A DNA stretch of 53,998 nucleotides from an uncultured Methylomarinum sp. (GTDB taxonomy: Bacteria > Pseudomonadota > Gammaproteobacteria > Methylococcales > Methylomonadaceae): positions 1-53,998 of the forward strand of contig CAYNRB010000001.1 of assembly GCA_964399475.1 (NCBI GenBank), written 5' to 3'. The notes beneath the pieces were generated by a model. That model worked only from the letters and a program-made list of their open reading frames with translations, did no database searches and had not been told where the DNA came from. Positions 3,338-46,606 of the stretch are shown piece after piece; within the stretch, counting starts at the first letter, position 1; each line of letters opens with the position of its first letter. Made by a program: the position numbers and the translations under genes.

Positions 3338-4639
3338 TTAAAGAAAGTTAAAAAGAGATAAATTTTGTACTCTTGAAAATGATTGCTGTGCGGCTTGAAG
3401 TACAATATTTTGCAAATTAAAACGCGAAATAGCTTCTGTATAATCTAGATCTTGAATTTCGGATAGCGTTGTTTGCAGATTGAAAATAAAGGTTTCATGC
3501 TGTTCTTCTTGATTATCAATTGTTCTTAATCTTGAACCCACAGCTGATCTTGCTTGAAGAAATGATTCTAATGCATTATCCAAATCGGTTAAAATTTCAT
3601 CACTGATTGTATTAAATAACTGACCAGGCTGGGTAATAGGAGGCAGCAGATTAATACCATTACCTGTATCTCCCGCATTAAAACCCGTTTCTGTAGCAAA
3701 ATTAGCACTAATTGCAGTGAGGGAAATGCTTGAAACGGCACCTTGGGTTGTAGAAATAAATTCTAAAAATTGTCCATTGCTTTGCGCTTTAATACCCGCA
3801 CCATTGAGTGCGACATCTGAATTAAAAACATTGACGAGATCATCTATCGTATTATAGGTTCCTGCTAAATTAATAGTGATGGGAGCTGCTGCAAGATCAT
3901 TATTTAAAGTAACCGTTGTACCAGCAACCAAGGTAAGCGGTGTATTGACTGCTTGTTTCCCTTGTATTACTGCATTTGGATCGGAAAAGCTTCCGGTTAA
4001 GGCGTTAGATAATGCCTTGAGAGTATTAAAAATACTCCGGGTATTATTCTTAAGGCTGGCATCTTGACTGACAGAGGTAATGTTTTCAAAAACGCTAGAA
4101 CCTGGATCTCCGTCTGCTATACGTCGACTTTCATTAACCTGAATGGTTCGCTGATTATCAGTTCCCTGGTAATCGTATGCATTTAATACTGTATCCCATA
4201 CAAAAGGTTTAGTATCCGTTAAATAGCCCGAGAAAATATATTCGCCATTCGCATTTTTGGTATTAGCTATACTCAGCAAATTGTCCAGTAATTGATCAAC
4301 TTCAGACTTTATTGATAATCTGTCGTTCGACGTTAATGTTCCATTAGCCGCTTGAATTGTTAATTCTTTGGCACGAAAAAGAACATTTTCTGCACTCTGT
4401 AGCGAAGATTCTTCCAGAACATTTCGCTCTCGAACGGTATCAATATTTCGCTGAAATTGATTGAGCTGGTCTATTTCTACATTAAATTCTAAAATTTTTG
4501 CTGCGGCAATCGGGTCATCTGAAGGTTTTAATTGTTTTAAACCCGTGGATAATTGTTGCTGCGTTTTAGCCAGCTTTACCTGTTGCTCTAGTAAAGCATT
4601 AACGTTTGAAAGTTGACTGTAAGCTGTAGAAATTCTCAT
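3338..4639 (-). CDS. flgL: flagellar hook-filament junction protein FlgL (HAP3)
   Basis: 433 aa. N-terminus MRISTAYSQ...LSTGLKQLKPSDDPIAAAKILEF and ...NGEYIFSGY match the FlgL/flagellin-N signature. Has the conserved C-terminal helical segment. Confidence 0.85.
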   Translation of the reverse strand: MRISTAYSQLSNVNALLEQQVKLAKTQQQLSTGLKQLKPSDDPIAAAKILEFNVEIDQLNQFQRNIDTVRERNVLEESSLQSAENVLFRAKELTIQAANGTLTSNDRLSIKSEVDQLLDNLLSIANTKNANGEYIFSGYLTDTKPFVWDTVLNAYDYQGTDNQRTIQVNESRRIADGDPGSSVFENITSVSQDASLKNNTRSIFNTLKALSNALTGSFSDPNAVIQGKQAVNTPLTLVAGTTVTLNNDLAAAPITINLAGTYNTIDDLVNVFNSDVALNGAGIKAQSNGQFLEFISTTQGAVSSISLTAISANFATETGFNAGDTGNGINLLPPITQPGQLFNTISDEILTDLDNALESFLQARSAVGSRLRTIDNQEEQHETFIFNLQTTLSEIQDLDYTEAISRFNLQNIVLQAAQQSFSRVQNLSLFNFL

Positions 4640-4697
4640 ATAACTGCTCTTTTAATTGATTAAGAAACTCTTTTCAAAATCAAATAATTTGATTAAT

Positions 4698-7265
4698 TTA
4701 GCCTTGTAACAAAGATAAAACACCTTGTGGAATCTGATTAGCTTGAGCTAGAATCGCGGTACCTGCCTGTTGTAAAATTTGATTTCTGGTTAATTCTGCT
4801 GTCTCTAAAGCAAAGTCAGTATCCCTAATTCTGGATCGTGCGGCACTTAGGTTTTCTATAGTGACTGAAAGATTGCCGATAGTTGACTGCACACGATTCT
4901 GTATCGCACCTAAATCTGCTCTGTTACTGTCAATTTGACCCAGGGCGCCATCCGCAATTTTGATCGCTTGATTAGAACCTTCAACGGTAGAAATATCTAT
5001 ACTATCAACGGCTATTAAAGCACTAGAACTAAGAATGCTAGCGCCTGCCGAAAATATACTGCCATTAATACCGGCAACGTCAGAGCTGACACTAAATGAC
5101 AGATTAGTGGAACTGAATTCAATTTCTCCGCCGATTACGGTTGAATCGGTACTCTGAGCCGTTAACAAAACAGTCGCCCCCTTTTTGCCGACAACATTTA
5201 TCGTCGAATTAGGCCCCGCCGAATTATTGAAATTTAGGATTTCAATATTTTCACCGGTATTATTACTCATAGTAATCACATCATTATTAATCCCTACAAT
5301 AGCAACAACTCCAGTTTTACTGGTTTGATCATTAATTGCATCAGCTAGCGCAATATAATCTGTTGTTGTCACTCGTCCACTGATTTTAATGCCGTTTAAT
5401 TCTATTGAAACCACACCATTTGCACTGATATTACTTAATGTTGCGGTAGTGAAAGCAGTCGCATCGACCCCAGTATTTTTAGCAAGTGCATTAACTTTAG
5501 CAATAATTGATTTTGCTGATTCATCATTGAGCACACTGATGACTTCTGTACCGGTACCTATAATTGTAATATTTTGAGCGGCAACGTTGTTACCCTGATC
5601 CGTATCATTTAAACCGTTGGTTCCAATCGTGTTCAAGGCGTTTGCGTTTGCGGCAGCATTGAGAAAACTATTGGCTCCGGATGCAACTGTAGATTGGATT
5701 GAAAAATTATTATTGGCAAATGTTATTCCCAAGCTTCCAGACTGGACTGCGGAATGAGCCGCATCCTCTGTTACCGTTTGTGCTGCAAAAGTCATTACTG
5801 ATGCGGCATCGGCAGAAGTAAAAGCTGTTAATAGCGTTCCTCCTTCAGCAATAGTGTATGGTCCGGTTGCTGTTCCTGCATGAGTGGTTGTTGCTGTAAA
5901 CCCTCCATTACTAACGCCTCCTGAGTTATCACCGGAAATACTAGCTAGATTGATGGCGCTGTTATCAATTGCGGTAATTTCCACACCCGTTCCGGCTGAG
6001 TCTAATATAGCCGTGAAAGTAGAACCAAAATTTGCATCGCCCTGTAAAGCAGTTAAAAGATTTTGAGCCGTGCCAGCTTGATTCCCTGCGTTATTTAAAA
6101 AACTAACCGTGCTATTCAATGCACTACCAAAAGTCAGTGTATTCGTTTCAGAAGCAACAGAGTTGGAAAAAGTATCGATGGTATAAGAGATATTATCTAT
6201 TGATTCATAATTGGCTATACCTATATTGGCTCCAGATGCACTATCAATGGTATTGCTTGAGGTATTGTAAGTTAAGTCTGCATTTCCCTTTAGCGTGTTA
6301 AGATCCAAAACAGCTTGAGAGACAGCGGTATCAAAGTCACTTGTAAAAGTAGCAGAATCATAAGTAATATCTACTGTAATTTTAGTCACTGAATCTAGGC
6401 CTGAATGCAAATCAAATTTAACCTGATCACCATTCTGAAGATTAGTAAAAAGTCCAGGATCACCAAAAGCAGCACTATTTGTTGCCGTGACCGCTACACC
6501 ATCTATTGCATTCAACTGACTGGCTATTACAGCTATATCTTGGGTTCCATTAGCAATGACTATAGGGGTGATGCTACCTAGATCATTAGTAACCGTTAAG
6601 GTTTGGTCATATGCATTTAGATTGCTTGATATGGCATTTGCATAGGAAGTACCGCTTCCTGCTATATTCAAATTTGAGGTTGCTATATCAACATCAAACC
6701 CACGAGTCGCATTAGAAATGCCCAAGGTTACATTGTCTGTAGTAAAGCTTTCTATGCCTAACCTATCTGTTGTGGCACTGGTAATGGAAATGTCAACAAA
6801 TTGACCCGCTTCTGCACCCACATGAAATCGTTGAGCAGTAAAAGAACCATCTAATATTTTTAGCCCATTAAAGTTGGCTGTATTTGAGATTCTGTCCAAC
6901 TCCGAAACTAATTGATTAACCTCTGCTTGTAGACTTAAACGGTCAGAAGCTGTATTAGTGGCATTCGCTGATTGCACGGCAAGTTCACGAATTCGTTGGA
7001 GGATATTGGTGCTTTCTGATAAAGCGCCTTCAGCTGTTTGAGCTAGAGAGATGCCATCGTTGGCATTTCGGGCTGCTTGTGTAGAACCCCGAATTTGAGC
7101 GGTCATTCTGTTCGATATTGCCAACCCTGCCGCATCATCTTTAGCACTATTTATCCGTAAACCTGACGATAAACGTTGTAAAGAGATTGCTAAGTCATCT
7201 TGAGAGCGATTTAAATTTCGTTGAGCATTAAGGGAAGGAATATTAGTATTTATAACTTGAGGCAT
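4698..7265 (-). CDS. fliC: flagellin, large (about 855 aa from the ATG at 7265)
   Basis: Conserved D0/D1 termini: [41 protein letters not shown] and C-terminal [39 protein letters not shown]. The track ORF starts at GTG 7274, but GGAG at 7277-7274 followed by ATG 7265 fits an RBS plus start better. The central ~600 aa is a Thr/Ser/Ala/Asn-rich variable domain. Confidence 0.93.
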
Positions 7266-7302
7266 GACAATCACTCCATATTTTTTAGTTTACCAAACAT
7301 GA

Positions 7303-7318
7303 AGCTTTTTTAATGCCA
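7303..7318 (-). promoter_or_regulatory. possible sigma-54 (-24/-12) promoter of the 858-aa flagellin gene
   Basis: The minus strand reads TGGCATtaaaaaAGCt, with GG and GC at the canonical 12-nt offset, about 45 nt upstream of the ATG. The -12 element is weak (AAGC versus TTGC). No sigma-28 match was found upstream of this gene. Confidence 0.25.
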
Positions 7319-7581
7319 AATAATTATTGTTACTTATATTTCAATTATATAAACTAATTATTTAGACAGTGACGTTTTTTTGATGGCAATATTTTTCCTT
7401 TTCGATAAAACCAGTGGCGTGTGTGCAGATTATAAAAGAGCTACACAATGATTTTTAAGTAAGAGAATATATATAGTATGAAGTAGCGTGCAAAAGGGGA
7501 TTATAGATTAGGAACGGAGTATAAATCACTTAGACATTCGAGTACTCCAACAATTCAGGTTTGATGAGTCGATGCTAATGG

Positions 7582-7606
7582 AGAGCGAACTTCAGTCCGC
7601 TCTACA
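7582..7606. repeat. short REP-like hairpin (AGAGCGAACTTCAGTCCGCTCTAC)
   Basis: Member of a 4-copy family in this window (see 18961, 19361, 30215). Stem AGCGrAC/GTCCGCT with loop TTCA. Confidence 0.7.
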
Positions 7607-7722
7607 ACATTCGTCAAACCAAAGTTAATTGGATATACCCTAATACTGCTTACTTAACGATTAAGGTATGAACAAACAATGGCTTAGAATGTAGGTTGGG
7701 TTAGCTTATCAAGCGAAGCGCG

Positions 7723-7775
7723 ATAACGTAACCCAACACCCTCCCATTAATCAATGTGTTGTTGGGTTACGTTAT
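7723..7775. repeat. perfect 16-bp inverted repeat with a 21-nt spacer
   Basis: ATAACGTAACCCAACA at 7723-7738 and TGTTGGGTTACGTTAT at 7760-7775, in the fliD-flagellin intergenic region. Confidence 0.8.
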
Positions 7776-7833
7776 TAAGATATTGTTTATTAAGTTATAA
7801 TTTTTTAAGTAAGCAGTATTGGGGTATACCCGA

Positions 7834-9861
7834 TCATCTATCTTGTCTAACAAACCCAGGTAAATTAGCCAATTGCTGTTCAAGGAAATTACCTGTTGAC
7901 TGTAATCTTGCCACTATAATATCTAAATTATTAAACTGTCTAAATAAACGGCTTTCCAGATTTTCCAGTCTATTATCTAAGGCTGATCGTTGCTCGTTCA
8001 GACGATCAATACGTGTATTTAATCCACTGGTGCGAGAATCAATTAAGCTATCTGCATTCAAAAACTGGCTGATTAAGTTATCTAACTGATCAGCTATTCC
8101 TCGATTAAAAAACAAAGTGCCTCTATTGCCTACAGATCCACCTGTAATTTCCAATACCACTCCCTCTGTGTCTCCCCTACCTGTGAGCAGGTTACCAAGT
8201 CCTATTGCAGATTGCCCTCCTATTGTTCCCCTAACGTCTGTACCTGAGGTTCCTTTACCCAGCGTTAGACCTAAATCATTGCTACCCTCAATGGCTGTAA
8301 TTTCAACGCTAGACTTAGCACTAAATAAAGCGGAAGAAATTTGCAGTTTACCTCCTGAAAAACTGACTAGCACACTGCTGCCATTGGTTTTTAAAGAATC
8401 ACTGGAATTAATTCTTGCCTGAATTTCTGTGGCAAGTTCTGCGCCGGAGTTATATATTTTTTGGGTAAGATCAATATTCCCCGTTCCAATACCGTCAATC
8501 AGTAAACTGAAGCTGTTATTGGTATCATCTATTGTTAAGGGGGAATTTGCCAGATCTGATAATGCAGCCGATGCAGTACCTGTCAAAACCCCACGACTGG
8601 CAATATTCTCCAGATTTATTGAGTAAGTTCCTGTCTGCGTGTTGGCACTTGATGTGATTACATTGATCTGCGCATCAGTTGTTGAACCTTTGGCGCTAAA
8701 TATTTGCGCAACAGCGTCACGGTTATCAGTAATTGCCGCTTGTAATTTATTACTGTCTAAAGAAAGTTTTCCGTTTCGATCTGTGGTTATCCCAATCGTT
8801 GATAATGAAGTAACCTCTCCATCTGGACCAGTTGACTGACTAGTAATAAGTCTGCGCAATTGTGACTCAACACCTCGTGCCGCAGAGTCACCAAGTAAAG
8901 GGCCTGCCTGCTCAGTCGAGGAATCAAAATCACTCAGTTGTGAAATTGTGTCAATCAGTTCATTAAACTTTGTAGTAAATTCAACGATTGAATCGGTAAT
9001 TTGGCTATCATTATTAGCGATAGTTATATTGACTGGTGAGCCGGGTGTTGTAATACCTTTTAAGGTAAAAGTGATTCCAGAAATAGCAGAGCTAACTGTA
9101 TTGCTAGAACTAGTAATGTTTAATCCATTTAAACTGAAAGCCGCATCTTCTGCCGTGAGGTTTTCAGTGAGTTGGTTGCTTACAGAAGCTGGGTCAAAAG
9201 CGAGCTGGGATAAACCACTAGCATCAAAATTATCGGCATCTGAGGTATCAGCAACAGAAATTTTAAGGCCATTTTCTTTGCCTGTTTCATCAGAGGTGAA
9301 TAATAATTTAAAACCAGAACCATCATTAACCAGACTGGCTGTTACGCCAATATCCGCTTGGTTAACCGCATCTCTAATACCTTGCAGACTATTGTCATCA
9401 CTACTGATAGTAACGATTTGATTGGTTTTTTCGCTATTACCAATAAAACTATTGCCATCAAAATCTCCAAACTCGAAAGTTAAAGTACCTGTTCCTACTG
9501 GGGATGAGGTTTCGGAAAAACTTTTCGAACTAAGCGATTGCGCTTGGGCAAGTGTTGTTATTTCCAAGGCATAATTGCCTGGATTGGCAATACTGGTACC
9601 GCTAGCAGTAACAAGATCTTCGTCAGATGTACTACTAACTACATCATTGAAGGTAGTAGCAAATTTTAATTGCGACAAGGATCCCTGAAAAGAGGATAAG
9701 GCTGATTTTAAAGAACCATAAGCTGAAAGCTTCGCTTGTAAAACAGCTTCTTGATTATCATAGCGTCTTTCTGTCGGCACACGCTCAGCAGAAATCAAAC
9801 TATCCACTAGCCCAGAAATATCAATACCAGAACCAATGCCAGAGGATGAAATAGTGGCCAT
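7834..9861 (-). CDS. fliD: flagellar filament capping protein FliD (HAP2)
   Basis: 675 aa. N-terminus MATISSSGIGSGIDISGLVDSLISAERVP...LQAKLSAYGSLKSALSSFQ and a C-terminal coiled segment (RIDRLNEQRSALDNRLENLESRLFRQFNNLD) are typical of FliD. Confidence 0.9.
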   Translation of the reverse strand: MATISSSGIGSGIDISGLVDSLISAERVPTERRYDNQEAVLQAKLSAYGSLKSALSSFQGSLSQLKFATTFNDVVSSTSDEDLVTASGTSIANPGNYALEITTLAQAQSLSSKSFSETSSPVGTGTLTFEFGDFDGNSFIGNSEKTNQIVTISSDDNSLQGIRDAVNQADIGVTASLVNDGSGFKLLFTSDETGKENGLKISVADTSDADNFDASGLSQLAFDPASVSNQLTENLTAEDAAFSLNGLNITSSSNTVSSAISGITFTLKGITTPGSPVNITIANNDSQITDSIVEFTTKFNELIDTISQLSDFDSSTEQAGPLLGDSAARGVESQLRRLITSQSTGPDGEVTSLSTIGITTDRNGKLSLDSNKLQAAITDNRDAVAQIFSAKGSTTDAQINVITSSANTQTGTYSINLENIASRGVLTGTASAALSDLANSPLTIDDTNNSFSLLIDGIGTGNIDLTQKIYNSGAELATEIQARINSSDSLKTNGSSVLVSFSGGKLQISSALFSAKSSVEITAIEGSNDLGLTLGKGTSGTDVRGTIGGQSAIGLGNLLTGRGDTEGVVLEITGGSVGNRGTLFFNRGIADQLDNLISQFLNADSLIDSRTSGLNTRIDRLNEQRSALDNRLENLESRLFRQFNNLDIIVARLQSTGNFLEQQLANLPGFVRQDR

Positions 9862-9998
9862 AATGTTTACCTCATATAAGATAGTGTCTTGCTTTAGCTG
9901 TCAATACTGTGCAAAAAAGTCCGCGAAATGAATTTTTTAAGAAAAATCAGTTTTACTTGCAAGCATCCGATTAAATATTAAATTTTACAAACACAAAT

Positions 9999-10014
9999 AG
10001 CGGCCTTTGCCGCT
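9999..10014 (-). terminator. candidate intrinsic (bidirectional-type) terminator after flaG
   Basis: AGCGGC-cttt-GCCGCT hairpin. On the minus strand it is followed by AUUUGUGUUUGU, and on the plus strand by a T7 run. Confidence 0.45.
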
Positions 10015-10065
10015 TCACTTTTTTTAAGATATTCTAGCAATATCTATGCCGTCATATTTATGGCA

Positions 10066-10521
10066 CTATGCATGAAGCTTGGGCAGTAACAATCCAGAAT
10101 TTTCAGGCATCTCATTTGCCTGGTTCGAAATTTGATTTGCAATAACCAATGCTTCTTCATTTGGAATCTGTCTGATCAGTTCTTCAGTGGTTGCATCAAT
10201 AACTTTGACGACTGTTTTGCCGCTGTCCGTATCAATATTGAATTCCAAGTTTCGATTGATTGATTGTACATAATTATTCAATTGTTGAACGGCTTCGTTC
10301 AATGATTCCTCAGACGGCTCTGATTTCTCTGCAACCTTATCAATTGCAGTAGATTTAAAGTCTTCCACTTTGTTTTCTACTTTACCCGTCCCAAATGAAC
10401 CTATTTTGCTATTGTCAGGATCCGTGTTGACACTCGAATTTTCTGCTATTTTTAAAATCGGTTTAAGCAATTCGGGTTTTACCGGACTGTATTGTGTATT
10501 AATGTTTATGCTCATGATCAC
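10066..10521 (-). CDS. flaG: flagellar protein FlaG
   Basis: 151 aa. C-terminal block LNEAVQQLNNYVQSINRNLEFNIDTDSGKTVVKVIDATTEELIRQIPNEEAL is the FlaG signature. Lies between a flagellin gene and fliD. Confidence 0.8.
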   Translation of the reverse strand: MIMSININTQYSPVKPELLKPILKIAENSSVNTDPDNSKIGSFGTGKVENKVEDFKSTAIDKVAEKSEPSEESLNEAVQQLNNYVQSINRNLEFNIDTDSGKTVVKVIDATTEELIRQIPNEEALVIANQISNQANEMPENSGLLLPKLHA

Positions 10522-10546
10522 ATCTCACTTTTACTGTAGGTGTTGT

Positions 10547-10581
10547 CTGATTCCTTAACCCAGGCCAGATTGAGGAATCAG
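10547..10581. repeat. 9-bp inverted repeat (CTGATTCCT / AGGAATCAG, 17-nt loop) between the giant flagellin and flaG
   Basis: Read directly from the sequence. No U-tract follows, so it is not a classical terminator. It may be an RNA 3' end or processing hairpin. Confidence 0.4.
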
Positions 10582-10605
10582 ATCCTTACTCTATTATGGA
10601 TTACC

Positions 10606-13600
10606 TTATCCTAATAGAGATAGTACACTTTGTGGTAATTGATTCGCCTGCGCTAAAATTGCAGTTCCAGCCTGTTGCAGAATCTGGTTACGGGTTAATT
10701 CTGCGGTTTCAGAAGCAAAATCTGTATCCAAAATACGAGATCTTGCCGCACTCAGGTTTTCAACACTGACAGCCAGATTTGAAATAGTCGAAGTGAATCT
10801 GTTTTGGATAGCACCCAATGATGCTCTGTTGCTATCCACACTGGCTATTGCCCCATCAACTATATCAATAGCTGCATTAGCACCTGCAACAGTCGATATA
10901 TCGAGTGAAGCAACAGACTCAAGGTCGCTTGAATTTAATATAGATGAATCACTTGCAAATAATCCGCCTTCATCGGCATCAAGACTTGAAGTAATATTAA
11001 ATGTACCCGCAGTAGATTTAAACTCAATGTTACCTCCAACCACCGTTGAGTCTCTATCTACACCTAATTCTCCAGTAGAGACTTTGACTTTAATGCCTTC
11101 AGACCCAGCCACGTCTAAAGAAACGACAGCATTAGTAGTCGCATTGGCAGCTGAGCTACTAAAATTTTCAATTTTAATATCCTCGCCTGTTGATTGCGTT
11201 AAAGTAATTTCAGTTTTAGTATTATTTAAAGTGGCAATAACTCCGGTTTTTCCTGATTGATCGTTAATTGCCGTAACCAGAGACGTATAATCAGTCGTTG
11301 TAATATTGGCTGAAACATCCGTTCCATTTAAATTAAATGAAGTAACACCATTAGTACTTAAGCCAGATAATGTTGCCGTTGTTTTGGCAGAAGCAGTGAC
11401 ACCTGTTGTTTCAGAAATAGAGTTAACGATGTCAACAATGTTTTTAGCTGATTGATCTTTTTGTATATCAATAGTCCCCGTTCCCGTCCCTGTCAGGGTG
11501 AGTGCTTGAGCTGCAACATTATTGCCTGTTGAGGTATCCGCTCCCCCCACACCATTAGTAAAAGTAACGTTGGTATTTGCCGCACCGTCAAAAATGCCAT
11601 CTGAAGATAGGTCTAGTGCACCTTCAGTACTATTGTCGGTAGCAATGCTAAAGCCATCAGCAACAGTCACTGAAAAAGAACTGACTTTTAATAAAGAGTC
11701 ACTACCGGTTGTTCCACCCGATTCAACTAATGATTTACCCTCAACACTTAAGGTATCAGTTTGGACATTCGTTGCTGAAATGGCTGATGCTGTACTACCA
11801 TCACTCACTGCCCCAATATTAGTAACCGTCGTTCCTGATGCTGAAATATTATCAAGCGTTGTGGAAATTGTAAAACCATCGGCTGTATCTGTACTGGTAC
11901 CTGTCACCAATTCAATATCTAAAGAAGCTCCATCAATACCAATAATTTCAACGCTATCACCAGCGTCATTCAAAGAAGCAGTAAATGTTTTATTGAAATT
12001 CGCATCAGCTTGTAAGGCAGCTAATAAGTTATCATCAGCTGTTGCACTTGATAGATAAGAAATTGTTCCTGCAGCAGCAGCCAAGGTAAAACTAGTTGTA
12101 TCCGTAGCCGCATCTTGTGTAAATGTATTAATTTCAATGGCTGCATTATCGAGTGTATCAAAATTTTCGACAGCTAAATTAGCACCGCTGGCACTGGTTA
12201 ACTTTTGAGTCGCATCATCATAAGACAAGTCTGAATTACCATTTGTATTATTGATACTTGAAAGTGCAGTTTGTACTGCTGCATTAAATTGAGTAGTGAA
12301 ATCTCCATTAGTTGGATCAGCGGTTGCCCCCGAAGCTGTTAAGGTAAAAGAAACGTTAGTAGGTGATGCCGAGTCCCCTGCATAAAGATCAAAGCTATAT
12401 TTGTCACCATGTTGCAAAGCTGCTGGGACTGTAGTTGCCGCAAAATCAATCTCATTGGCATCGGCTGTAGCAGTAACACCTTCTACAGCAGATAAGGCTG
12501 AGGCAATAGACGCTGCATCTCTGCTTCCAGAAGCGGCATCAATATTAACGGCTGTTGTTGCACCCGAAGCATCTGTTACGGTAACTGTTTGATCGGCTAT
12601 TTCAGCACCAATCAAAGAAGACACATCAGTACCTGTAGATAATGCACTCACTCTATCTAAAGTTCCATTGTCTGCATCGGTCTTAATATTTGTGCCAGGA
12701 TCTACAGTGATATTATAGGTACCTATTTGTAATGCAGCTGTCTGTCCTTCTTCCGTCAGATTTTGACCTGCAAAACCTAAGGAATCATTATTCTGAGTCG
12801 CTGTTATATTAGTCACAGCTACATTTGCAGTCGCAGCTTCAGTTATAGAAGCGGAGGCGACCGTTGTATTTGTACCTGCCGTCAATGTAAAACCCGAAGC
12901 CCTAACATTCGAACCCGCAAATTCACTTAAGCTTATCCCAGTTACAGCACCTGCCGCAGCAGTATTTGCACTAGTTGCAGTAATAACCACATCAGTTGTG
13001 CCACTTAAAGCCACTGAAAAATCGTTAGTACCCGTATTGTTAGCTAATGCCAAATCCAAAGCCGATTTTAAAGCATTGGCATCACCCTGCTGGGTGCCCG
13101 TTGCTGTATAACTGATATCATAGGCTTTAGTAGGATCAGATGTATGTGCTGCGCTCAATTTGAATGAAATGGTTTCACCCGCGACAGAGTTAAATTCTTC
13201 GATAGTAGCACTAAATGTATTATTGGTAGTTACCGTGTTAGCAGACGATAAAACACCAGTCGCACCTTCGGTAAGCGTCTGTGTGCTAGTACCTGATAGG
13301 ACAGTTCCTCCAAATGTGGAGCCTGCAGTAGATGTGATATCTACCTGAGAAGCCGTATTAGCATCATTGCCTGTATACGCAGTAATACCTAAATCTGTGC
13401 TAGTACCGCCAGCTGGAGTAAGTCCAGTCACAACTACTTTCTCACCTGTTGAATCAAGTGCTGCTGTAAAATTCGTACCAAAATTAGTATGACCAGTTAA
13501 TGTCTGTAACAGTGCTGTTGCATTATCGGCATCAGTATCGCCAGCAGTAAATGTACGAGTTTCACCATCTATGGCAAAAGAAATAGTTTCCCCTGAAACA

Positions 13601-14697
13601 TTGGCAAAATTACTAAAAGTGACTTGTGCATTATCTTCTACTGCCAGACTTTCAACCCCTAAATTGACCCCAGATGCACTGGTAATGGTTTGAGTTGCCG
13701 TATCATAGGATAAGTCGCTATCTCCGTTTGCTGTATTGATGTTACCTATGGCTGTTTGTATTTTTGCATCGAAATCACTGGTGTAGGTAGCGGAATCAAC
13801 AACCAATGAAATATTTTCTGGCGTGCCTCCATCTTTTGCTACCAGACTAAAAGATATTTTGTCGCCATTAGTAGATGGCGCACTAGTGTCAAAAGAAACA
13901 CTATTGGCATTGGCTGTAGCATTTACGCCGTTAATTGCATCCAGTTTAGTAGCAATGACCGAGGCATCTCTACTATCTGTTGCATCATTAATAGAAACAA
14001 TTGATGTTTGGCCATCTTTATCTGTTACGGTGATTTTTTGATCGACAAAAGCAGCATCAGTTAAAGCTTCTACCGTAGTATTGCCTGTACTCGCTTTACC
14101 ATTACTGGTTCCACTGGCATTAACAGAAAGATCGCCTGTTGCGACCTCTACGCCTAGAGTAGCATTGTCCGTGTTGAATTTTTCGATACCCAAACTATCC
14201 GAAGTAGATTTAGCAATATTAACCTGGATTGTTTGTCCTGAATCAGCGCCAACTTGAAATTGCTGTGCTTGGAAAGAACCATCTAATAATTTAATACTGT
14301 TAAATGAGGTAGTCTCTGAAATTCTATCCAGCTCTGAAACTAATTGGTTAACCTCTGATTGCAAGCTTAAACGGTCAGAAGAAGAGTTTGTGGCGTTAGC
14401 AGACTGTACCGCAAGCTCACGAATTCTTTGTAATATATTGGTACTTTCAGATAATGCGCCTTCAGCCGTTTGAGCCAATGAAATACCATCATTGGCATTT
14501 CGGCTAGCTTGACCTAAGCCTTTTATTTGTGAAGTAAGGCGGTTTGAAATTGCCAAGCCCGCAGCATCATCTTTTGCACTATTAATACGTAAACCTGTTG
14601 ACAGACGCTGCAATGAGGTAGCCAGTCCCATTTGCGATTTTTCCAGATTTCGTTGCGCATTGATGGATGGAACGTTGGTGTTGATACCTAAACCCAT
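10606..14697 (-). CDS. fliC: giant flagellin (1363 aa)
   Basis: Canonical flagellin N-terminus ([41 protein letters not shown]) and C-terminus ([38 protein letters not shown]). AGGAG RBS 8 nt upstream of ATG 14697. The ~1100-aa variable core has internal repeats and a flagellin-IN-like motif ([43 protein letters not shown]). Confidence 0.93.
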
Positions 14698-14812: not shown

Positions 14813-14839
14813 TTAGCGTCTTGCTAACTGGAATCTTTA
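14813..14839 (-). promoter_or_regulatory. sigma-28 (FliA) promoter of the giant flagellin gene
   Basis: The minus strand reads TAAAGATT-N11-GACGCTAA against the consensus TAAAGTTT-N11-GCCGATAA (7/8 and 6/8, exact 11-nt spacer). It lies about 115 nt upstream of the start codon. Confidence 0.65.
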
Positions 14840-15044
14840 ATAAATTTTTGTTAATTTTTTTTGGGCTTAGGAGGATAAAATAATGACCACCATTTTAAGA
14901 TCAAGCTAACAACTGGGCTCAAATAACTTAAGCTACTACGGAACAGCAATAGCTCAAGCTATTACACCGCTGCCAAATCATCGCGCAACATCTTATAAGT
15001 ACCTAAGAATAATTATTTTAACAAAATATAGAGGGTACAATACC

Positions 15045-15125
15045 GTAGGGGCAATCTCTTGTGCTTGCCCCCTGTTACAATTTTCATATTCTCAACGCAA
15101 GGCAACCACAAGGGTTTGCCCCTAC
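15045..15125. repeat. 81-bp imperfect long hairpin (GTAGGGGCAA ... TTGCCCCTAC)
   Basis: Outer 10-bp perfect inverted repeat at 15045-15054 and 15116-15125. Inner arms CTTGTGCTTGCC and GGCAACCACAAG are complementary. Lies in the divergent flagellin/fliS intergenic region. Confidence 0.7.
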
Positions 15126-15263
15126 AAAATGTTAATTTAATTATACATATCTACTTATTTGTGAAAAAATAAGTTAAATTTAATTGATTCAAACTGAATC
15201 ATTGTTTTCAAGAAGTTACATTATTCTTGGCTACTGTTATACTTAAGGCAACAGAATTTAGGC

Positions 15264-15290
15264 TAAAGTTAGTTGATTTCATGCCGATAA
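15264..15290 (+). promoter_or_regulatory. sigma-28 (FliA) promoter of fliS-fliT
   Basis: TAAAGTTA-N11-GCCGATAA (7/8 and 8/8, exact 11-nt spacer), 42 nt upstream of ATG 15332. It lies inside the N-terminal extension of the track ORF, which argues for the downstream start. Confidence 0.75.
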
Positions 15291-15331
15291 AAGGCTTAGA
15301 TTTTGATTATAATTTTAAGGCAGGTATTGTA

Positions 15332-15874
15332 ATGAGTGCACAAACAAATGCAGCATTGAGTAGTTATAGTGATTATGGGTATAACACTGAAATTGATTAT
15401 GCCGATCCTCACCGCTTAATTCAGATGTTATTTGAAGGTGCTTTAAAGCGAATAGCCTTCGCAAAAGGTGCCATGCAGCGGAAACAAATTGCCGAAAAAG
15501 GTAATTATATTAGTCAAACAATTGATATTGTAGGTGGTTTAAGAGCCAGTCTTGACATGAAAAATGGCGGAGAAATTGCTGCTAATCTGGAATCACTTTA
15601 TGAATATATTACGCATCAACTATTAGCTGCGAATTTGAATAATAGCATTGAGATTCTTGATGAAGTAAGTGGTTTACTCCGTGATGTTAAAGTAGCCTGG
15701 GATGCAATAAATGCGCCTGCCGCAACGATGGAGAAAAAAGAGATTGAGTTCGAAAAACCAGTCAACAATGTTGAAATTAAGCAAACACCTGTTAATATAC
15801 CTGTGAAAGTTAACAAGCCTGTGCAAACCGTAAACGCTCGAGCCAACAAAGCATTAAAGGCTTACGCCAGTTAG
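15332..15874 (+). CDS. fliS: flagellin-specific export chaperone FliS with a C-terminal extension
   Basis: FliS core: ADPHRLIQMLFEGALKRIAFAKGAMQRKQIAEKGNYISQTIDIVGGLRASLDMKNGGEIAANLESLYEYITHQLLAANL. Start moved from TTG 15227 to ATG 15332 because of the AAGG RBS and the sigma-28 promoter at 15264-15290. Confidence 0.85.
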   Translation: MSAQTNAALSSYSDYGYNTEIDYADPHRLIQMLFEGALKRIAFAKGAMQRKQIAEKGNYISQTIDIVGGLRASLDMKNGGEIAANLESLYEYITHQLLAANLNNSIEILDEVSGLLRDVKVAWDAINAPAATMEKKEIEFEKPVNNVEIKQTPVNIPVKVNKPVQTVNARANKALKAYAS

Positions 15875-15875
15875 T

Positions 15876-16181
15876 ATGCCAAGTTCCGAATATAAAACTT
15901 CTGATATTTTGTTGCATACGCAAGAAATGATGATCAATGTTATCGAAGGTCAATGGGATCAGCTATTGGCAAAGCAATCCAGACAAGATCTAATGATCAA
16001 ACAGATTTTTTTTATATCAGATAAGATTTTTTCAGAGAGAGAGCAAGAAGAACTGGAAGAAGTAAAACGACTGAATCAAGAAATATTAAAAGCAACAGAA
16101 ACACACAGAAATGAAACTGCAAAGAAATTAAGAGATATGAGACGAGGGAAAACTAAAGCTCAGGCCTATCAAGCCTTATAA
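15876..16181 (+). CDS. fliT: FliT-like flagellar chaperone
   Basis: 101-aa helical protein immediately after fliS. The EGQWDQLLAKQSRQDLMIKQI block parallels the EEQWDELIASE region of enterobacterial FliT. Confidence 0.55.
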   Translation: MPSSEYKTSDILLHTQEMMINVIEGQWDQLLAKQSRQDLMIKQIFFISDKIFSEREQEELEEVKRLNQEILKATETHRNETAKKLRDMRRGKTKAQAYQAL

Positions 16182-25281: not shown

Positions 25282-26259
25282 TTAAAACAAATGCTTTATT
25301 GCATCTCTTTCTTCTATTAATTCAGCTTCTGTACTTCGTAATTTCTCACGACTAAATTCATTAATGTCCAGACCCAGTACAATTTTTATCTGCCCCTCAG
25401 AAACAGTGACTGGAAAGGAAAATATCAAGCCTTTTTCAATGCCATAACTTCCATCAGAAACGATGGCCATGCTCACCCAATCACCTTCATCAGTTCCTAA
25501 AGCCCAAGTTTTCATATGACATAAAGCAGCATTAGCTGCTGATGCTGCACTGGACTGACCTCTAGCCTTTATGATTTTTCCCCCTCTTTGCTGTACGGTA
25601 GGAATAAAATAGTCCTCAAACCAGTCAGATCCCACTAAATCCAAAGCATCCTGACCTTTTACCTTGGCATAATGTAAATCTGGATATTGTGTAGAGGAAT
25701 GATTCCCCCAAACAATCACATTTTTAATATCACTGGCAATGACACCCGCTTTCTCTGCTAATTGTGTTATAGAGCGATTATGATCCAGACGCGTCATGGC
25801 AGAAAAGCATCCAGAACTTAAATCAGGGGCATTATTCATTGCAATCAATGCATTAGTATTGGCAGGGTTTCCAGTGACCAATACCTTTACATTTCGATGT
25901 GCGACTTCATTTAACGCCTTACCCTGAGTAGAAAAAATTTCTGCATTACATAACAGCAAATCCTTTCGCTCCATACCAGGACCGCGTGGTCTTGCACCGA
26001 CTAAAAAAGCATAATCAACATTTTTAAATGCCACTTTGGGATCATCAGTCATGACTATTTTATGTAATAACGGATAAGCACAATCATTCAATTCCATTTC
26101 CACACCCTTTAAAGCATCCATGGCCGGTGGAATTTCCAGTAAATGTAAGATGACGGGTTGATCTGAACCCAGCAACTCTCCAGCAGCCAGACGAAATAGC
26201 AATGAATAGCTGATCTGACCCGCCGCACCAGTGACAGCAATATCTATGGGTGTTTTCAT
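25282..26259 (-). CDS. mdh: malate dehydrogenase (NAD-dependent, long 'cytosolic/Thermus' type)
   Basis: 325 aa. Motifs [53 protein letters not shown] and [13 protein letters not shown]. Confidence 0.93.
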
Positions 26260-26674
26260 TTGTTTTCCTTATAAAACATGTTTCTTTTCAAAGCGTATTA
26301 ATATATCGAATAAACTATAAATCAATCAACATACGCTAAAAAGTCATAATTAAAGCGATGAATAAAATAAGGTATAATAACGCGAATTTAACATATAATC
26401 AGACATTTTGGAATGGTATATTAGCTTGTTATATTAATAATAGTAGAAAAAAAACAACAATAGTTAAGCCTTATAAGATTGTTATTGCTTAGGACAAGTC
26501 TGTAGCAAGATTTTTTCCATTGCTTCACCTCTAGAAAGCTAAACGCCTAAACCAAATTATAAACGTGCAGAACACAATCTCGCCAATTGGCTTGGCATAA
26601 AACATTTAGAATCGCTAAAGCTATTCTAATTATGCACGCCCTATATGCACTCCAATACTTTTAAAGATTCAAGA

Positions 26675-27532
26675 ATGAAAAAATTGTTATTCCAGTTTGA
26701 TACAGATATTTCACCCTCTTCATTCGATACTGTAGTTGCCTACGATGGAGGTGCAGATCACGTAATACCTCACGGTGGATTAACAACCAAAAACATCTCT
26801 TCATTGGTTGAAGGTACAATTTTCACTAGAGCTCCCAAAAACAAAAAGAATACAGCCATTTTTATCGGTGGTAGTAATATGCTAGCAGGTCAAGCTCTAC
26901 TTTTTGCCGTACAAAAATGTTTTTTTCCAGGCTTTCAGGTCTCTGTAATGCTAGATAGTAACGGCTGTAACACTACTTCAGCCTCAGCAGTGGCAAAAAT
27001 AGCTAGTAGCACTTCAATAGCTGGAAAAAAAGTCGTTATTCTTGCAGGAACAGGCCCAGTTGGTCAACGTGCGGCTGCCATGTTTGCTCAGGATGGAGCA
27101 GATGTATCAATTACTTCCCGAGAATTATCTAGTGCAGAATTAGCCTGCGCAGCAATAAAAGCACGATTTAGAGTTGAAGTAACGGCTATTGAAGCATCCG
27201 ACTGTAATGCTCGAGGAAATGTCATCCAGGATGCTAATATTGTTCTTGCTACTGGTGCAGCGGGCATTCCGTTACTCAATGCAGAACACTGGGAAAACAA
27301 CTCCAATTTGGAAGTTATTGCAGATGCTAATGCCACCCCACCATTAGGCATCGGTGGTACAGAAATGCTTGATAAAGGGTTAGATCGTCATGGCAAAAAA
27401 GTTTGGGGGGCAATCGGATTCGGCCCACTTAAACTAGCACTACACCGCGCCTGTATTGCCAAGTTATTTGAAAATAACACGCAAGTTTTTGATGCCGAAC
27501 TTATCTTTAAACTAGCCAAAAAAATGGCTTAA
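26675..27532 (+). CDS. mtdA: NADP-dependent methylene-tetrahydromethanopterin / methylene-tetrahydrofolate dehydrogenase MtdA
   Basis: From MKKLLFQFDTD the protein tracks my recollection of Methylobacterium MtdA along its length (SVFDVVVGYDGGADH, MLDSNG.NTT, LAGTGPVG, NA.PPLGIGG, LKL.LHRACIAKLFE...VFDAE.I.KLAK.MA). ATG 26675 is preferred to the track start at 26645. Confidence 0.9.
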   Translation: MKKLLFQFDTDISPSSFDTVVAYDGGADHVIPHGGLTTKNISSLVEGTIFTRAPKNKKNTAIFIGGSNMLAGQALLFAVQKCFFPGFQVSVMLDSNGCNTTSASAVAKIASSTSIAGKKVVILAGTGPVGQRAAAMFAQDGADVSITSRELSSAELACAAIKARFRVEVTAIEASDCNARGNVIQDANIVLATGAAGIPLLNAEHWENNSNLEVIADANATPPLGIGGTEMLDKGLDRHGKKVWGAIGFGPLKLALHRACIAKLFENNTQVFDAELIFKLAKKMA

Positions 27533-27548
27533 CCAACCTTCATTTATT

Positions 27549-28913
27549 ATGGGATTATCACTTAAAAATATTCGTCAGCATGCCATCAGTATTTTTCAGA
27601 ATGGAATTGATGCAGCAGACCCGTATCAAGCCGTTAAAAACTGTTTGACGGTAGCTGAAAATCATTTTGAAATAGCTTTAAATTTAAGTGATAAATCAAA
27701 AATACTTTGCGGAAGATGGTCAAAAATACATGTTATTGCATTTGGAAAAGCGGCATATAAAATGACCAAAGCAGTCACGGAACTCATTCCTAAACATCGT
27801 TTAGCAGGCATGCCATTAGCCATTACCAATTATGAGAATGCGCAAACCGCAACTGATTTTAAAGTCATTCTAGCGGGTCACCCTAGTCCAGATAACGCGG
27901 GTCTAGAAGCGGCTCAATTACTCATCAAGAAGCTTAATAACACAGAGAGTAATGAATTAGTACTGGTACTTATTTCGGGAGGCGGTTCGGCACTGATACC
28001 CTATCCTGCTTTTGGTATTACCTTGGAAGATAAGCAAATCACCACTAATTTATTGTTGGCTAGCGGAGCTGACATACAACAAATCAACTGTGTCAGGAAA
28101 CACCTCTCTCAAATTAAGGGAGGCAATTTAGCAAAATTGGCCACACCAGCAGATTTACATACTTTTATCTTGTCTGATGTTGTGGGCGATGATTTAAGCA
28201 CCATTGCAAGTGGCCCAACGGTTCCTGATGATTCTACCTTTGCCGAGGCAATAAAAATCCTAAAAGAAAAACATATTTGGGAAAAAACACCTCTTAATGT
28301 ACAAACATTACTAGAAAAAGGTGCCCAAGGGCATATCAAAGAAACGCCAAAACCTGGTCAATCCTTTTTCACAAAAAATACGCACACATTGGTTGGAAGT
28401 AACACTATCAGCCTTAACTCAATTATCAAAACTGCCCAAAAGCTTGGCTATGAAACTGACTTATACAGTCAGTCAGTTTCGGGTGAAGCCAGAGATTTTG
28501 CAGAACAATTAGTTGTTTATGCCAAAAGCCGAATAGAATCTGGCTTAAGCCAAGCGACAGCAATACTATCCGGCGGCGAAACAACGGTTACTCTCAAGGG
28601 AACCGGCAAAGGCGGACGAAACCAAGAAACAGCACTGGCTTTTGCAATTGCCGCAAAAAAACATAAACTAAAGGGGAAATGGACATTTCTTAGTGGCGGC
28701 TCGGATGGAATTGATGGCCCAACAGATGCTGCGGGTGGAATAGTTGACTCAGGCACACTCAAGCGAATGAAAATAGCTAAAGCAAACCCCAAAAACAGAT
28801 TAAAAAATAACGATTCATATACAGCCTTAAAAAAATCAGAGGATCTTGTTATTACCGGATCAACCGGAACTAATGTTGCTGATTTTCAAATACTACTAAT
28901 CCAGCCAGAATAA
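27549..28913 (+). CDS. glycerate 2-kinase (DUF4147 + MOFRL family; also annotated hydroxypyruvate reductase/TtuD)
   Basis: 454 aa. Motifs [19 protein letters not shown] and [20 protein letters not shown]...[16 protein letters not shown]. Lies between mtdA and glyA. Confidence 0.85.
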
Positions 28914-28929
28914 CCTATCAGGAGATATA

Positions 28930-30186
28930 ATGTTTAAAAAGTCCATGACCATAGCGGGTTTTGATAATGAATTATTTCAAGCCATGGAAGACGAACGTCA
29001 GCGCCAGGAAGACCATATTGAGCTAATTGCATCAGAAAACTATACTAGCCCTCGTGTTATGGAAGCGCAAGGCTCGCAATTGACCAATAAATATGCCGAA
29101 GGCTATCCGTCAAAACGTTATTATGGTGGCTGTGAGTTTGTAGATAAAGCTGAGCAATTAGCCATCGACCGTGTTAAAGAGTTGTACGGTGCAGACTATG
29201 CCAATGTGCAACCTCATTCCGGTTCACAAGCGAATATGGCTGTATACATGGCATTAGTTCAACCGGGAGATACTATTCTTGGTTTAAGTTTGGCTGATGG
29301 TGGTCACTTAACTCATGGCGCCAAACCTAATTTTTCTGGTAAAATCTACAATTCCATTCAGTATGGACTCCATCCTGATACAGGTGAAATTGATTATGAT
29401 CAAGTGGAAGCCTTAGCACTAGAGCATAAACCAAAAATGATTGTTGCCGGGTTTTCTGCCTATTCAAGAATTTGCGATTGGCAACGTTTTAGGGACATTG
29501 CTGACAAAGTAGGGGCTTATCTTTTTGTTGATATGGCGCATGTTGCTGGATTAATTGCAGCCGGTATATACCCTAACCCCGTTCCTTTTGCAGATGTTGT
29601 TACCAGCACAACGCATAAATCATTACGTGGCCCCAGAGGCGGCTTTATTATTTGTAAAAGCAACCCTGAATTAGAGAAAAAATTTAACTCCAATATTTTT
29701 CCAGGTATTCAGGGCGGCCCATTGATGCATGTCATTGCAGCCAAAGCTGTTGCTTTTAAAGAAGCTATGTTGCCAGAATTTGCACAATATCAGCAACAAG
29801 TAGTCCTTAATGCCCAGGCTATGGCCAGTGTTTTCATCAATCGTGGATTTGATGTCGTTTCGGGTGGCACTGACAATCACCTCATGTTGGTTTCCTTAAT
29901 ACCTAAAGGTATAACGGGAAAAGCGGCTGATGCTGCCCTAGGTAAAGCTCATATTACTGTCAATAAAAATGCTGTTCCTAACGACCCCGAATCACCTTTT
30001 GTTACCAGTGGAATTCGAGTGGGAACCCCAGCTCCAACATCACGAGGCTTTAAAGTCCCTCAGGTGACAGAAATCGCAAATATGATGTGTGATGTAATGG
30101 AAAATATGGACGATGAAAAAGTAATTTCTGCAGTACGTGACAAGGTTAGCCTGCTTTGTTCTCGCTTCCCTGTATACAGTGATTAA
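28930..30186 (+). CDS. glyA: serine hydroxymethyltransferase
   Basis: 418 aa. Motifs [44 protein letters not shown] and [14 protein letters not shown] (PLP Lys). Confidence 0.97.
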
Positions 30187-30214
30187 TCATCATTTTCGCT
30201 TACCTTCCGACAAT

Positions 30215-30236
30215 GTAGAGCGGACTTCAGTCCGCT
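30215..30236. repeat. short REP-like hairpin (GTAGAGCGGACTTCAGTCCGCT) 29 nt after the glyA stop
   Basis: Perfect 7-bp stem AGCGGAC/GTCCGCT with loop TTCA, followed by TTTCAATT. May act as a terminator or attenuator. Confidence 0.65.
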
Positions 30237-30388
30237 TTCAATTCACCATCATGGAAGACAATGTTCTGCATTACGAAAAACTAATAATAATGACAGAATG
30301 CACTGTATAGCAACCTGGATATTTATGAAAGATTCACAGGTTTATTATCACAAATTACCAAACTAATTTTACAGAACTACAAAACCTT

Positions 30389-30553
30389 TAAGGAGTGAGG
30401 ATTTAATAATATCCGAAAGTTTGGCGCAGGATTTTTGTTCGTCTTCAAGGCGTAGAAACGGGCGCATAGCGAGCTATGCAACTGTTTCTACAACGCAGAA
30501 GACGGACAAAAAGACAAGCCAAGATTCGGATATTATTAAATCCTCGCTCCTAA
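30389..30553 (+). repeat. LHE copy 4 (variant B, inner stem partly degraded)
   Basis: Outer arms identical to copy 3. Loop is GGGCGCATAGCGAGCTATGCAAC. The left inner arm carries mismatches. Confidence 0.85.
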
Positions 30554-30712
30554 GGTGGCTTCCAACAATAAATATGCCAGAATTGCGTAGGATTTTTGTT
30601 TCTGATTAAACAATCTCAAGAGGCGCATAGTTATTCTACGTAACGATTGAGATTGTTTGATCAGGAACAAAAAGACAAGAAAGTTTGGACTATTTATTGT
30701 TGGAAACCACCT
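30553..30712 (+). repeat. LHE copy 5 (variant C), abutting copy 4
   Basis: Outer arms AGGTGGCTTCCAACAATAAATA / TATTTATTGTTGGAAACCACCT. Bulge motifs GCGTAGGATTTTTGT and ACAAAAAGACAAGAAAGTTT. Loop GAGGCGCATAGTTATTCTACGTAAC. A third, self-complementary inner stem (CTGATTAAACAATCTCAA). Confidence 0.85.
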
Positions 30713-30748
30713 AAATGTATAAGAAAACTCAAATAACAGGAAATTACA

Positions 30749-34679: not shown

Positions 34680-34760
34680 GCTTTTGTTTGAGAAATAACT
34701 AAATATAATTTATGAGTATCATTTATTATAGAATCAATACTAATAAAACGGGTAGAAATA

Positions 34761-35561: not shown

Positions 35562-35718
35562 CTTTGCTAATTAATAACGATGACTCCCAGCAATCTGACC
35601 ATCTACTTTTTTACAAAGTTGATTTAGTCATAAATGTGCTATATTTCTATATCAACAGATGACTTTCAAACAAAAAATCCTCTTGTGTAATTGATTATAT
35701 AAAGTTAAACACCCAAGT

Positions 35719-41878: not shown

Positions 41879-41929
41879 GATAGTTGTACGAATGAATTAG
41901 AAAAAGTCAACATTACAATTTACCTAGAT

Positions 41930-45740: not shown

Positions 45741-45829
45741 ACTTAGTCCAGCTATACAAGTAGTAAGATTGATTTTATTTTCCCTAGCGAATCCAAACTA
45801 TGAAGCCAACAATTTTGACATATTGATTA

Positions 45830-46375: not shown

Positions 46376-46559
46376 TTGTCTATCCTCTCCTGTTTAAATA
46401 AACATTTAAAGTAATTAATACCATATTATTTTAGATTTGCACAATCATTTTTTAATAAAATGCATTAATTTTTAAATGATTTCGATTAAATCTTAGTATG
46501 ATTCCAACTAAAATTATAAGTAATTAATCTTTACAACTGATTTAATTTAATCACGCAAC

Positions 46560-46606
46560 TTAATTAAACATATTTTAATTATTTTAATTATTTTAATTAA
46601 ACATAC
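46560..46606. repeat. direct repeat TTAATTAAACATA (x2) flanking three tandem ATTTTAATT units
   Basis: Read directly at 46560-46572 and 46594-46606, with the 9-mers between them. Lies inside the 785-bp AT-rich divergent spacer. Confidence 0.7.

Follow-up and report, generated by a model that had tools for sequence, protein, structure and literature searches.

A giant flagellin with a repeated outer-domain cassette at a flagellar locus of an uncultured Methylomarinum sp.

How does a flagellin come to exceed 1300 amino acids (aa), and would a protein of that size still serve as the subunit of a filament? The question is raised by one gene on contig CAYNRB010000001.1 (GenBank assembly GCA_964399475.1) of an uncultured Methylomarinum sp., of which we analysed a stretch of 53,998 nucleotides (nt), hereafter the window. 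The gene lies at 10606..14697 on the minus strand and encodes, from an ATG start and in an uninterrupted frame, 1363 aa followed by a stop codon. A first-pass annotation had read it as a giant flagellin built by internal duplication of a surface module of about 210 aa. Our results suggest, with a probability that we put at roughly three in four, that the protein is a functional filament subunit carrying three homologous outer cassettes and giving an acidic, thick filament.

The first point, that the protein is a flagellin, was upheld by its termini, its profile scores and its locus. Indeed, Flagellin_N (PF00669) matches aa 5-142 (E 4e-48; 163.5 bits, cutoff 26.6) within an N-terminal D0/D1 segment at aa 1-180 (14158..14697, minus strand), and Flagellin_C (PF00700) matches aa 1277-1362 (E 3e-28) within the C-terminal D1/D0 segment at aa 1277-1363 (10609..10869, minus strand). 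These termini are canonical, as had been stated, with 84-89% (N-terminal) and 85-92% (C-terminal) identity to the family, and they enclose a variable core of about 1100 aa. NCBIfam flagellin models reach up to 381 bits, far above the 48 bits obtained with the FlgL model TIGR02550 (cutoff 127), and the protein scores under the full-length cutoffs of the individual flagellin equivalogs because of its huge insert. The gene shares its locus with flaG, fliD, flgL, fliS, fliT and motY, and an AGGAGA ribosome-binding site stands 7 nt 5' of its ATG. With 1363 aa, it also exceeds the 1000 aa above which Thomson et al. 2018 (PMC6248924) speak of giant flagellins.

The second point concerns the internal repeat. 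BLAST of the whole protein against itself gave the identity match only, and the protein was therefore tiled and masked, upon which aa 203-435 (copy 1; 13393..14091, minus strand) aligned with aa 687-937 (copy 2, the extra copy; 11887..12639, minus strand) at 41% identity over 255 columns (BLASTP with composition-based statistics, E 9e-35). Because the protein is rich in Thr, Ala and Ser, a shuffle control was run, in which the Smith-Waterman score of copy 1 against copy 2 was 419 compared with 77 +/- 10 in 300 shuffles (z = 35). At the nucleotide level, the copies are 57% identical. The two long paralogous segments announced by the first-pass annotation thus form a significant repeat, and all six paired strings that it quoted are present, with nucleotide coordinates that convert correctly. 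The size of about 210 aa given for the repeat unit does not hold, since a beta-motif recurs as well: aa 626-686 (12640-12822, minus strand) resembles aa 941-1046 (hhalign probability 99.6% for blocks M3 and P1; Smith-Waterman z = 6.8), the pair being recovered by BLAST at aa 638-681 and aa 981-1029. This extends the repeated units to aa 203-686 (about 484 aa) and aa 687-1046 (about 360 aa).

Each unit, here called a cassette, opens with a module of three blocks (A, B and C), which pair one by one between the copies (A1 with A2, B1 with B2, C1 with C2) at hhalign probabilities of at least 99.7% each. In cassette 1, the module is followed by a middle region at aa 436-686 (12640..13392, minus strand) that is common to relatives of about 1030 aa (P0007, P0014 and P0016) and that ends in the beta-motif. 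Within this region, a C-like unit on the same strand (aa ~501-625; hhalign probability 99.2% for block M2 against C) occurs in cassette 1 only and is likewise found in the ~1030-aa relatives. In cassette 2, the module is followed by a tail at aa 938-1046 (11560..11886, minus strand), in which BLAST, hhalign and the shuffles place the second beta-motif (~aa 981-1029).

A third relative lies further downstream, in the conserved C-terminal outer domain at aa 1047-1276 (10870..11559, minus strand). Our first jackhmmer sub-block profiles cross-recruited paralogous units, and the link between module and C-terminal domain was retested with position-restricted profiles, in which blocks A and B of the module aligned to the first two thirds of the C-terminal domain (hhalign probability 95.9%, E 5e-9). 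In addition, the profile hidden Markov model (HMM) of the module matches the C-terminal domain of several other family members. Judging from these profile comparisons, the cassette has a third, distant relative in the C-terminal outer domain. The DE HMM and Foldseek class the domain as DE/Flagellin_IN-type: an HMM rebuilt from 17 of the DE sequences published by Thomson et al. 2018 (S4 File) gave one significant match in the protein, at aa 1077-1217 (E 1.4e-12). Scores were negative on the duplicated modules and on the rest of the protein, and two tandem DE regions were not found. Flagellin_IN itself (PF07196) gave no match at E <= 0.01 in either flagellin of the window and is precomputed for most close homologues.

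In the structure predictions for the core domains (AlphaFold2), both A-B-C copies show an identical order of secondary-structure elements (E H E E H E E / E E H E E E / E E E H E E), and Foldseek confidently returned flagellin D2/D3 domains. The best structural match to the C-terminal outer domain is the D2/D3 region of Pseudomonas aeruginosa PAO1 FliC (8erm, E 2e-8, probability 1.00), with template-modelling (TM) scores of 0.56-0.68 (TM (target): giant core, 0.56; model of the shorter flagellin of the locus, 0.67); the PAO1 filament 8sug was also matched. Both proteins appear to hold Flagellin_IN-type motifs, but PAO1 FliC is a protein of 488 aa with a single D2/D3 unit, whereas the giant flagellin has two further, distantly related cassettes inserted upstream of its D2/D3-like domain.

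The shorter flagellin of the locus (4698..7274, minus strand; Pfam) provides an internal comparison, as it carries a single A-B-C cassette. Its open reading frame starts with GTG and gives 858 aa, with an AlphaFold2 model of mean predicted local distance difference test (pLDDT) 84.8; an ATG at 7265, which would give 855 aa, is probably the real start, and is preferred because of homologues (P0045, 855 aa) and of a GGAG ribosome-binding site. BLAST aligned this protein with the giant one at giant aa 5-426 (53% identity) and aa 1047-1362 (56%), in agreement with the earlier observation that it holds the module once, and the extra copy of the surface module accounts for about 360 aa of the giant protein.

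How common such growth is can be read from the family. A whole-protein search returned thousands of relatives, most of which measure about 850-880 aa and a smaller share 1000-1460 aa, and the relatives of about 860 aa hold one A-B-C cassette plus the C-terminal one. Among the 123 family members fetched, two full A-B-C copies occur only in the window protein and in the P0002 cluster, whose representative (1384 aa, 65% identical over its full length) comes from an ENA contig of an independent metagenome (L003). Proteins of about 1300 aa (P0004/P0123, P0005, P0006, P0013 and P0015) grew by duplication of the C unit together with the unit that follows it, and P0083, P0119 and P0075 hold yet other repeats. 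A profile of the three window modules, compared with 1.84 billion representative proteins, matched 57; none of these 57 holds two strong full copies, and several amplify the C unit alone, up to about six times. Five proteins (P0145, P0154, P0165, P0166 and P0167) are flagellins of a different lineage (N-terminus MALTINHNLMA...), in which a C-type unit of about 85 aa is amplified up to about six times. Of the building blocks of the family, this unit seems to be the one repeated most often. One candidate, P0126 (2294 aa, 11 partial matches), was rejected as an unrelated repetitive protein rather than a flagellin, and a scan of genome contigs matched only distant flagellins from Gallionella and from a 'Rhizobium' metagenome-assembled genome.

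The cassette is not confined to flagellins. With its block order unchanged, the A-B-C-beta cassette stands at ~aa 418-760 of giant FlgK proteins of 1000-1520 aa (P0127, P0131, P0135, P0137, P0140, P0143, P0149, P0164, P0132 and P0142), which are recognised by Pfam FlgK_D1 and Flg_bbr_C. As an example, one such gene (L004, 9973-14106) is part of a normal flgF-flgN-flgK operon on a contig of 57% guanine plus cytosine, a composition that assigns it to a different lineage than the window.

A comparison for the locus as a whole comes from a second contig (L005; GCA_006844875.1, 3437-14283), in which the gene order of window 3338-14697 is repeated: long flagellin, flaG, fliD, 855-aa flagellin, flgL. 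Identity between the two loci is 68% for FliD, 63% for FlgL and 75% for the short flagellin. On that contig the long flagellin has 1293 aa, about 50% identity to the giant one and another repeat architecture (duplicated C and D units). Like the giant protein, these Methylococcales flagellins of about 1300 aa belong to the same family, stand in the same locus order and hold the N-terminal A-B-C module and the C-terminal domain; unlike it, they duplicate the C unit and the next unit and not the whole A-B-C cassette. From these alignments, the gene in the fliC position is seen as expanded independently in sister lineages, with a second flagellin that stayed stable.

Where did the second cassette come from? 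The first-pass annotation spoke of internal duplication, of which the extra module copy is real but a simple recent event is unsupported, as copies 1 and 2 were sisters in only 19 of 300 and 28 of 500 bootstrap neighbour-joining (NJ) trees (about 6%). Each copy is slightly closer to some single-copy modules (46-48% identity) than to the other copy (~41%). Moreover, the copy-1 modules of the window protein and of the P0002 cluster grouped together in 300 of 300 replicates, as did the copy-2 modules, which dates the second copy to before these lineages diverged. No donor of copy 2 was identified in the module trees. By this phylogenetic evidence, the second copy would be either old or derived from recombination with a flagellin of the 860-aa type.

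The latter origin, in which two flagellin genes underwent illegitimate recombination so that the front of a ~1030-aa type (aa 1-686, up to and including its beta-motif) was joined to an 860-aa type from residue ~204 onwards, seems to us a real possibility at somewhat less than even odds. Besides the rarity of sister copies and their closeness to single-copy modules, several alignments favour it: aa 688-1362 are colinear with residues 204-853 of the 855-aa type (44% over 686 columns, few gaps), aa 1-480 align with residues 1-477 of the same type, and the middle region at aa 436-686 is shared with the ~1030-aa relatives. Two flagellin genes are present in the same locus, and the occurrence of the cassette in FlgK shows movement between genes. 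Against this, no donor stands out, the best candidate sisters reaching only 15-22% each, and modules of the 860-aa type make up ~80% of the tips, so that an '860-type sister' is uninformative; in addition, tandem duplication followed by faster evolution of both copies and a deletion in copy 2 would give the same pattern, and NJ trees from 236 columns at ~40% identity are weak. Note that recombination concerns how the protein arose and is compatible with its being a filament subunit. A related proposal, that the termini D0/D1 come from another lineage than the core, was dropped, as D0/D1 identities of 84-92% throughout the family do not discriminate.

A broader and slightly more tentative reading is that the A-B-C-beta block has moved by recombination among the genes of flagellar axial proteins in general. 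It would comprise the joining, at residue ~204, of a ~1030-aa-type front to an 860-aa type in the giant flagellin, the insertion of the cassette into FlgK, leading to hook-junction proteins of ~1400 aa, and a hot spot at the fliC position of marine Methylococcales, where different blocks were duplicated and the second flagellin was conserved.

Whichever way the second cassette arose, we favour for the giant protein a role as filament subunit. Its canonical D0/D1 helices would polymerise into the filament core, and its surface part of ~1100 aa would carry, in series, three outer-domain cassettes that are homologous to one another. The first (cassette 1, aa 203-686) is made of the A-B-C module, an extra C-like unit and the beta-motif; the second (cassette 2, aa 687-1046) is made of the module and the beta-motif; and the third is a C-terminal cassette (aa 1047-1276) that would be the ancestral one, of Flagellin_IN or 'DE region' type and with a fold like that of D2/D3 in P. 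aeruginosa FliC. The second full cassette would have been gained before the lineages of the window and of P0002 separated, and kept since by purifying selection. The core (aa 181-1276), with a Ser plus Thr content of 28% and a net charge of -94, has neither Cys nor Trp. An assembled filament would be predicted to gain one more layer of outer domains, strongly acidic and rich in Ser and Thr. Its diameter should lie at 30 nm or more, as measured for flagellins of 1020-1190 aa. The giant protein probably makes up the bulk of the filament, as its gene takes the fliC position in the order fliC-flaG-fliD, and the 855-aa flagellin encoded beside flgL would be a second subunit. A thick sheath and an adhesive role, as first suggested, are plausible; the filament is possibly glycosylated, and no glycosylation genes were found in the window.

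Selection acts on all parts of the gene. Compared with the L003 orthologue, the proportion of nonsynonymous differences (pN) is far below that of synonymous ones (pS) in every block, and the ratio of nonsynonymous to synonymous rates (dN/dS) is ~0.18-0.19 for both A-B-C copies, ~0.18 for the C-terminal domain and 0.03-0.05 for D0/D1, all of them rough values with a dS near saturation. Both copies are thus maintained under purifying selection. The saturation itself tells against the role of filament subunit, as do three other observations. The AlphaFold2 model of the giant core (aa 150-1292) is only moderately confident (pLDDT 72.6, predicted TM score 0.49), so that neither the radial thickness nor the placement of the cassettes with respect to one another can be read from it. 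The candidate sigma-28-like promoter of the gene (14813..14839, minus strand; 116-142 nt upstream of the ATG; 3 mismatches) does not rise above chance, 2.8 matches of equal quality being expected in the window. Finally, the same locus holds a second intact flagellin, which could be the major subunit.

This last observation leads to the explanation that survives best as a rival in function, namely that the 855-aa paralogue builds the filament and that the giant flagellin plays a minor or conditional part or does not assemble at all, being for example an alternative or hook-proximal subunit or a surface protein that is secreted. We consider it unlikely. Filaments made of several flagellins in spatially separated positions occur in other polar flagellates, and the short flagellin is better conserved between lineages (75%) than the positional counterpart of the giant one in L005 (~50%). 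Scans for sigma-28, sigma-54 and sigma-70 promoters found none that was convincing for the giant gene: no sigma-54 site with <= 2 mismatches stands upstream of either flagellin gene on the correct strand, and sigma-70 and terminator scans stayed at chance level. On the other side, the giant gene holds the canonical fliC position directly upstream of flaG-fliD, a position shared with L003 and L005; its ribosome-binding site is strong, its D0/D1 segments are 84-92% conserved with a dN/dS of 0.03-0.05, and the giant flagellin of Bermanella is the filament protein (PMC6248924).

An enzymatic core, either flagellinolysin-like or of another catalytic flagellin, appears very improbable: it stems from the earlier suggestion of an enzymatic role and from the existence of proteolytic flagellins elsewhere (PMC7643111), and it conflicts with the absence of any Pfam domain in aa 143-1276, of any PDB match in a sequence search with aa 180-1046 and of an HExxH motif, with only 3 His in the whole protein, with high-probability Foldseek matches to flagellin D2/D3 only, and with a core that the repeated beta/alpha cassettes explain in full. 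Nothing beyond the general risk of metagenome-derived contigs speaks for an artefact of assembly or annotation, such as a chimeric contig or a mis-joined repeat. It is excluded for practical purposes, since the copies are only 57% identical in DNA, the reading frame is uninterrupted, and an ENA contig of independent origin carries an orthologue whose blocks follow one another in the same order.

With the filament-subunit reading retained, the protein can be set beside the giant flagellins already known. The first-pass annotation described these as rare and as giving thick filaments in a few gammaproteobacteria of marine origin. Giant flagellins are not confined to such bacteria, as 92 of them, of up to 1965 aa and in many phyla, were listed by Thomson et al. 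2018 (PMC6248924). Thick filaments were demonstrated experimentally in only two species, Bermanella and Oleibacter, with diameters of at least 30 nm (24 nm in Salmonella). Both Oceanospirillales proteins (Bermanella marisrubri, 1020 aa; Oleibacter marinus, 1190 aa) share with ours a length above 1000 aa, canonical D0/D1 termini, an internal duplication with inserts in the outer block, a DE/Flagellin_IN-type region and a host among the marine gammaproteobacteria with polar flagella. The proposed route differs: giants were suggested to evolve through duplication of the 'DE region' with a DX insert (PMC6248924), giving DE1-DX-DE2 in the Oceanospirillales, in contrast to the three cassettes found here, in which a different A-B-C-beta cassette of ~360-480 aa is duplicated. 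Nothing comparable to the Gly-rich DX segment (~35 aa) was seen by eye, no DX profile search having been made. The host differs as well, belonging to the Methylococcales and not to the Oceanospirillales. Within that order, the list of Thomson et al. (S1) already includes a giant flagellin from a methanotroph, Methylomagnum ishizawai A0A1Y6D5E5 (1381 aa). In short, growth by internal duplication is already published (PMC6248924); the present case departs from it in which block was duplicated, in its layout of three cassettes and in the order to which the host belongs.

A second parallel is the 792-aa flagellin of Geovibrio thiophilus (9au6; Sonani et al. 2024, PMC11532411), whose outer domain D5 is a duplicate of D4, whose outer domains are common to other flagellar proteins (FliD) and whose surface is unusually acidic. 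It resembles the giant flagellin in being large and multi-domain, with a duplicated outer domain and an acidic surface, and it was the second-best Foldseek match of the paralogue model. Its fold is nevertheless different (TM 0.23-0.24), with a single domain nested in a loop as opposed to a serial multi-domain cassette. The cassette in FlgK is a further case of the outer-domain sharing seen between Geovibrio flagellin and FliD.

The remaining genes of the locus are those expected around a filament gene. On the minus strand lie flaG (10066..10521; Pfam FlaG, E 5e-22), fliD for the filament cap (7834..9861, 675 aa; Pfam FliD_N and FliD_C, NCBIfam FliD) and flgL for the hook-filament junction protein (3338..4639; TIGR02550 flagell_flgL, 292 bits against a cutoff of 127). 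The genes fliS and fliT (15227..16181, plus strand; Pfam FliS E 6e-39, FliT E 2e-5) are divergent from the giant gene. The TTG listed for fliS at 15227 is probably too far upstream, and its real start is probably the ATG at 15332; a perfect sigma-28 (FliA) consensus, TAAAGTTAGTTGATTTCATGCCGATAA, stands ~40 nt 5' of this likely start at 15264-15290 (plus strand). A sigma-54-like element, CGGCATAGATATTGCT, was seen between flaG and fliD at 10036-10051 (minus strand), ~175 nt upstream of fliD, and the start of the 855-aa flagellin is preceded, at a distance of ~40 nt, by a weaker GG-N10-GC element, TTGGCATTAAAAAAGCTT. GC-rich inverted repeats occur upstream of both flagellin genes, at 15020-15125 and 7640-7830 (e.g., GGGGCAAACCC...GGTTGCC; GGGGGCAAGC...GCCCCTAC; GGTATACCCCAATACTGCTTACTTAA paired with TTAAGTAAGCAGTATTAGGGTATA). 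They flank the two intergenic regions and look similar to repetitive extragenic palindromes (REP) or miniature inverted-repeat transposable elements (MITE).

Elsewhere in the window, the nearest named relatives of Ffh belong to Methylococcales, Methylomarinum and methanotrophic sponge symbionts (86-92% identity), and genes of the tetrahydromethanopterin (H4MPT) pathway and the serine cycle are present. From these gene comparisons, the host is read as a marine methanotroph lineage of the Methylococcales, and not of the Oceanospirillales. A cluster of one-carbon metabolism at 25282-32422 (malate dehydrogenase, a methylene-H4MPT dehydrogenase-like protein, a glycerate kinase-like protein (DUF4147/MOFRL), serine hydroxymethyltransferase and formate-tetrahydrofolate ligase) is consistent with a methylotrophic or methanotrophic host. 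Two further regions, 32970-36426 and 38087-48504, hold a group made of a Ser/Thr kinase, a PP2C phosphatase and an FHA protein and, adjoining it, a cluster encoding a multihaem cytochrome/LVIVD-repeat protein of 1263 aa, a porin-like protein of 612 aa, an HbpS-like protein of 663 aa, and OmpA-like and cytochrome c554-like proteins. This multihaem cytochrome cluster may be an extracellular electron-transfer module.

Altogether, no new kind of system is revealed by this locus; the published duplication model is extended to another domain block and to another bacterial order, that of marine methanotrophs. Flagellin outer domains set the thickness, surface chemistry and antigenicity of the filament, and they probably affect swimming in viscous or particle-rich habitats. 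In this context, the locus offers a natural example of the stepwise, modular growth of a filament surface, with the cassette present once, twice, or three times when its ancient relative is counted, and the same modular growth is seen in the differing expansions at one locus in sister lineages and in the cassette of FlgK. Flagellins with one, two and three cassettes are thus defined constructs with which the diameter, stiffness and motility gained with each added layer could be followed.

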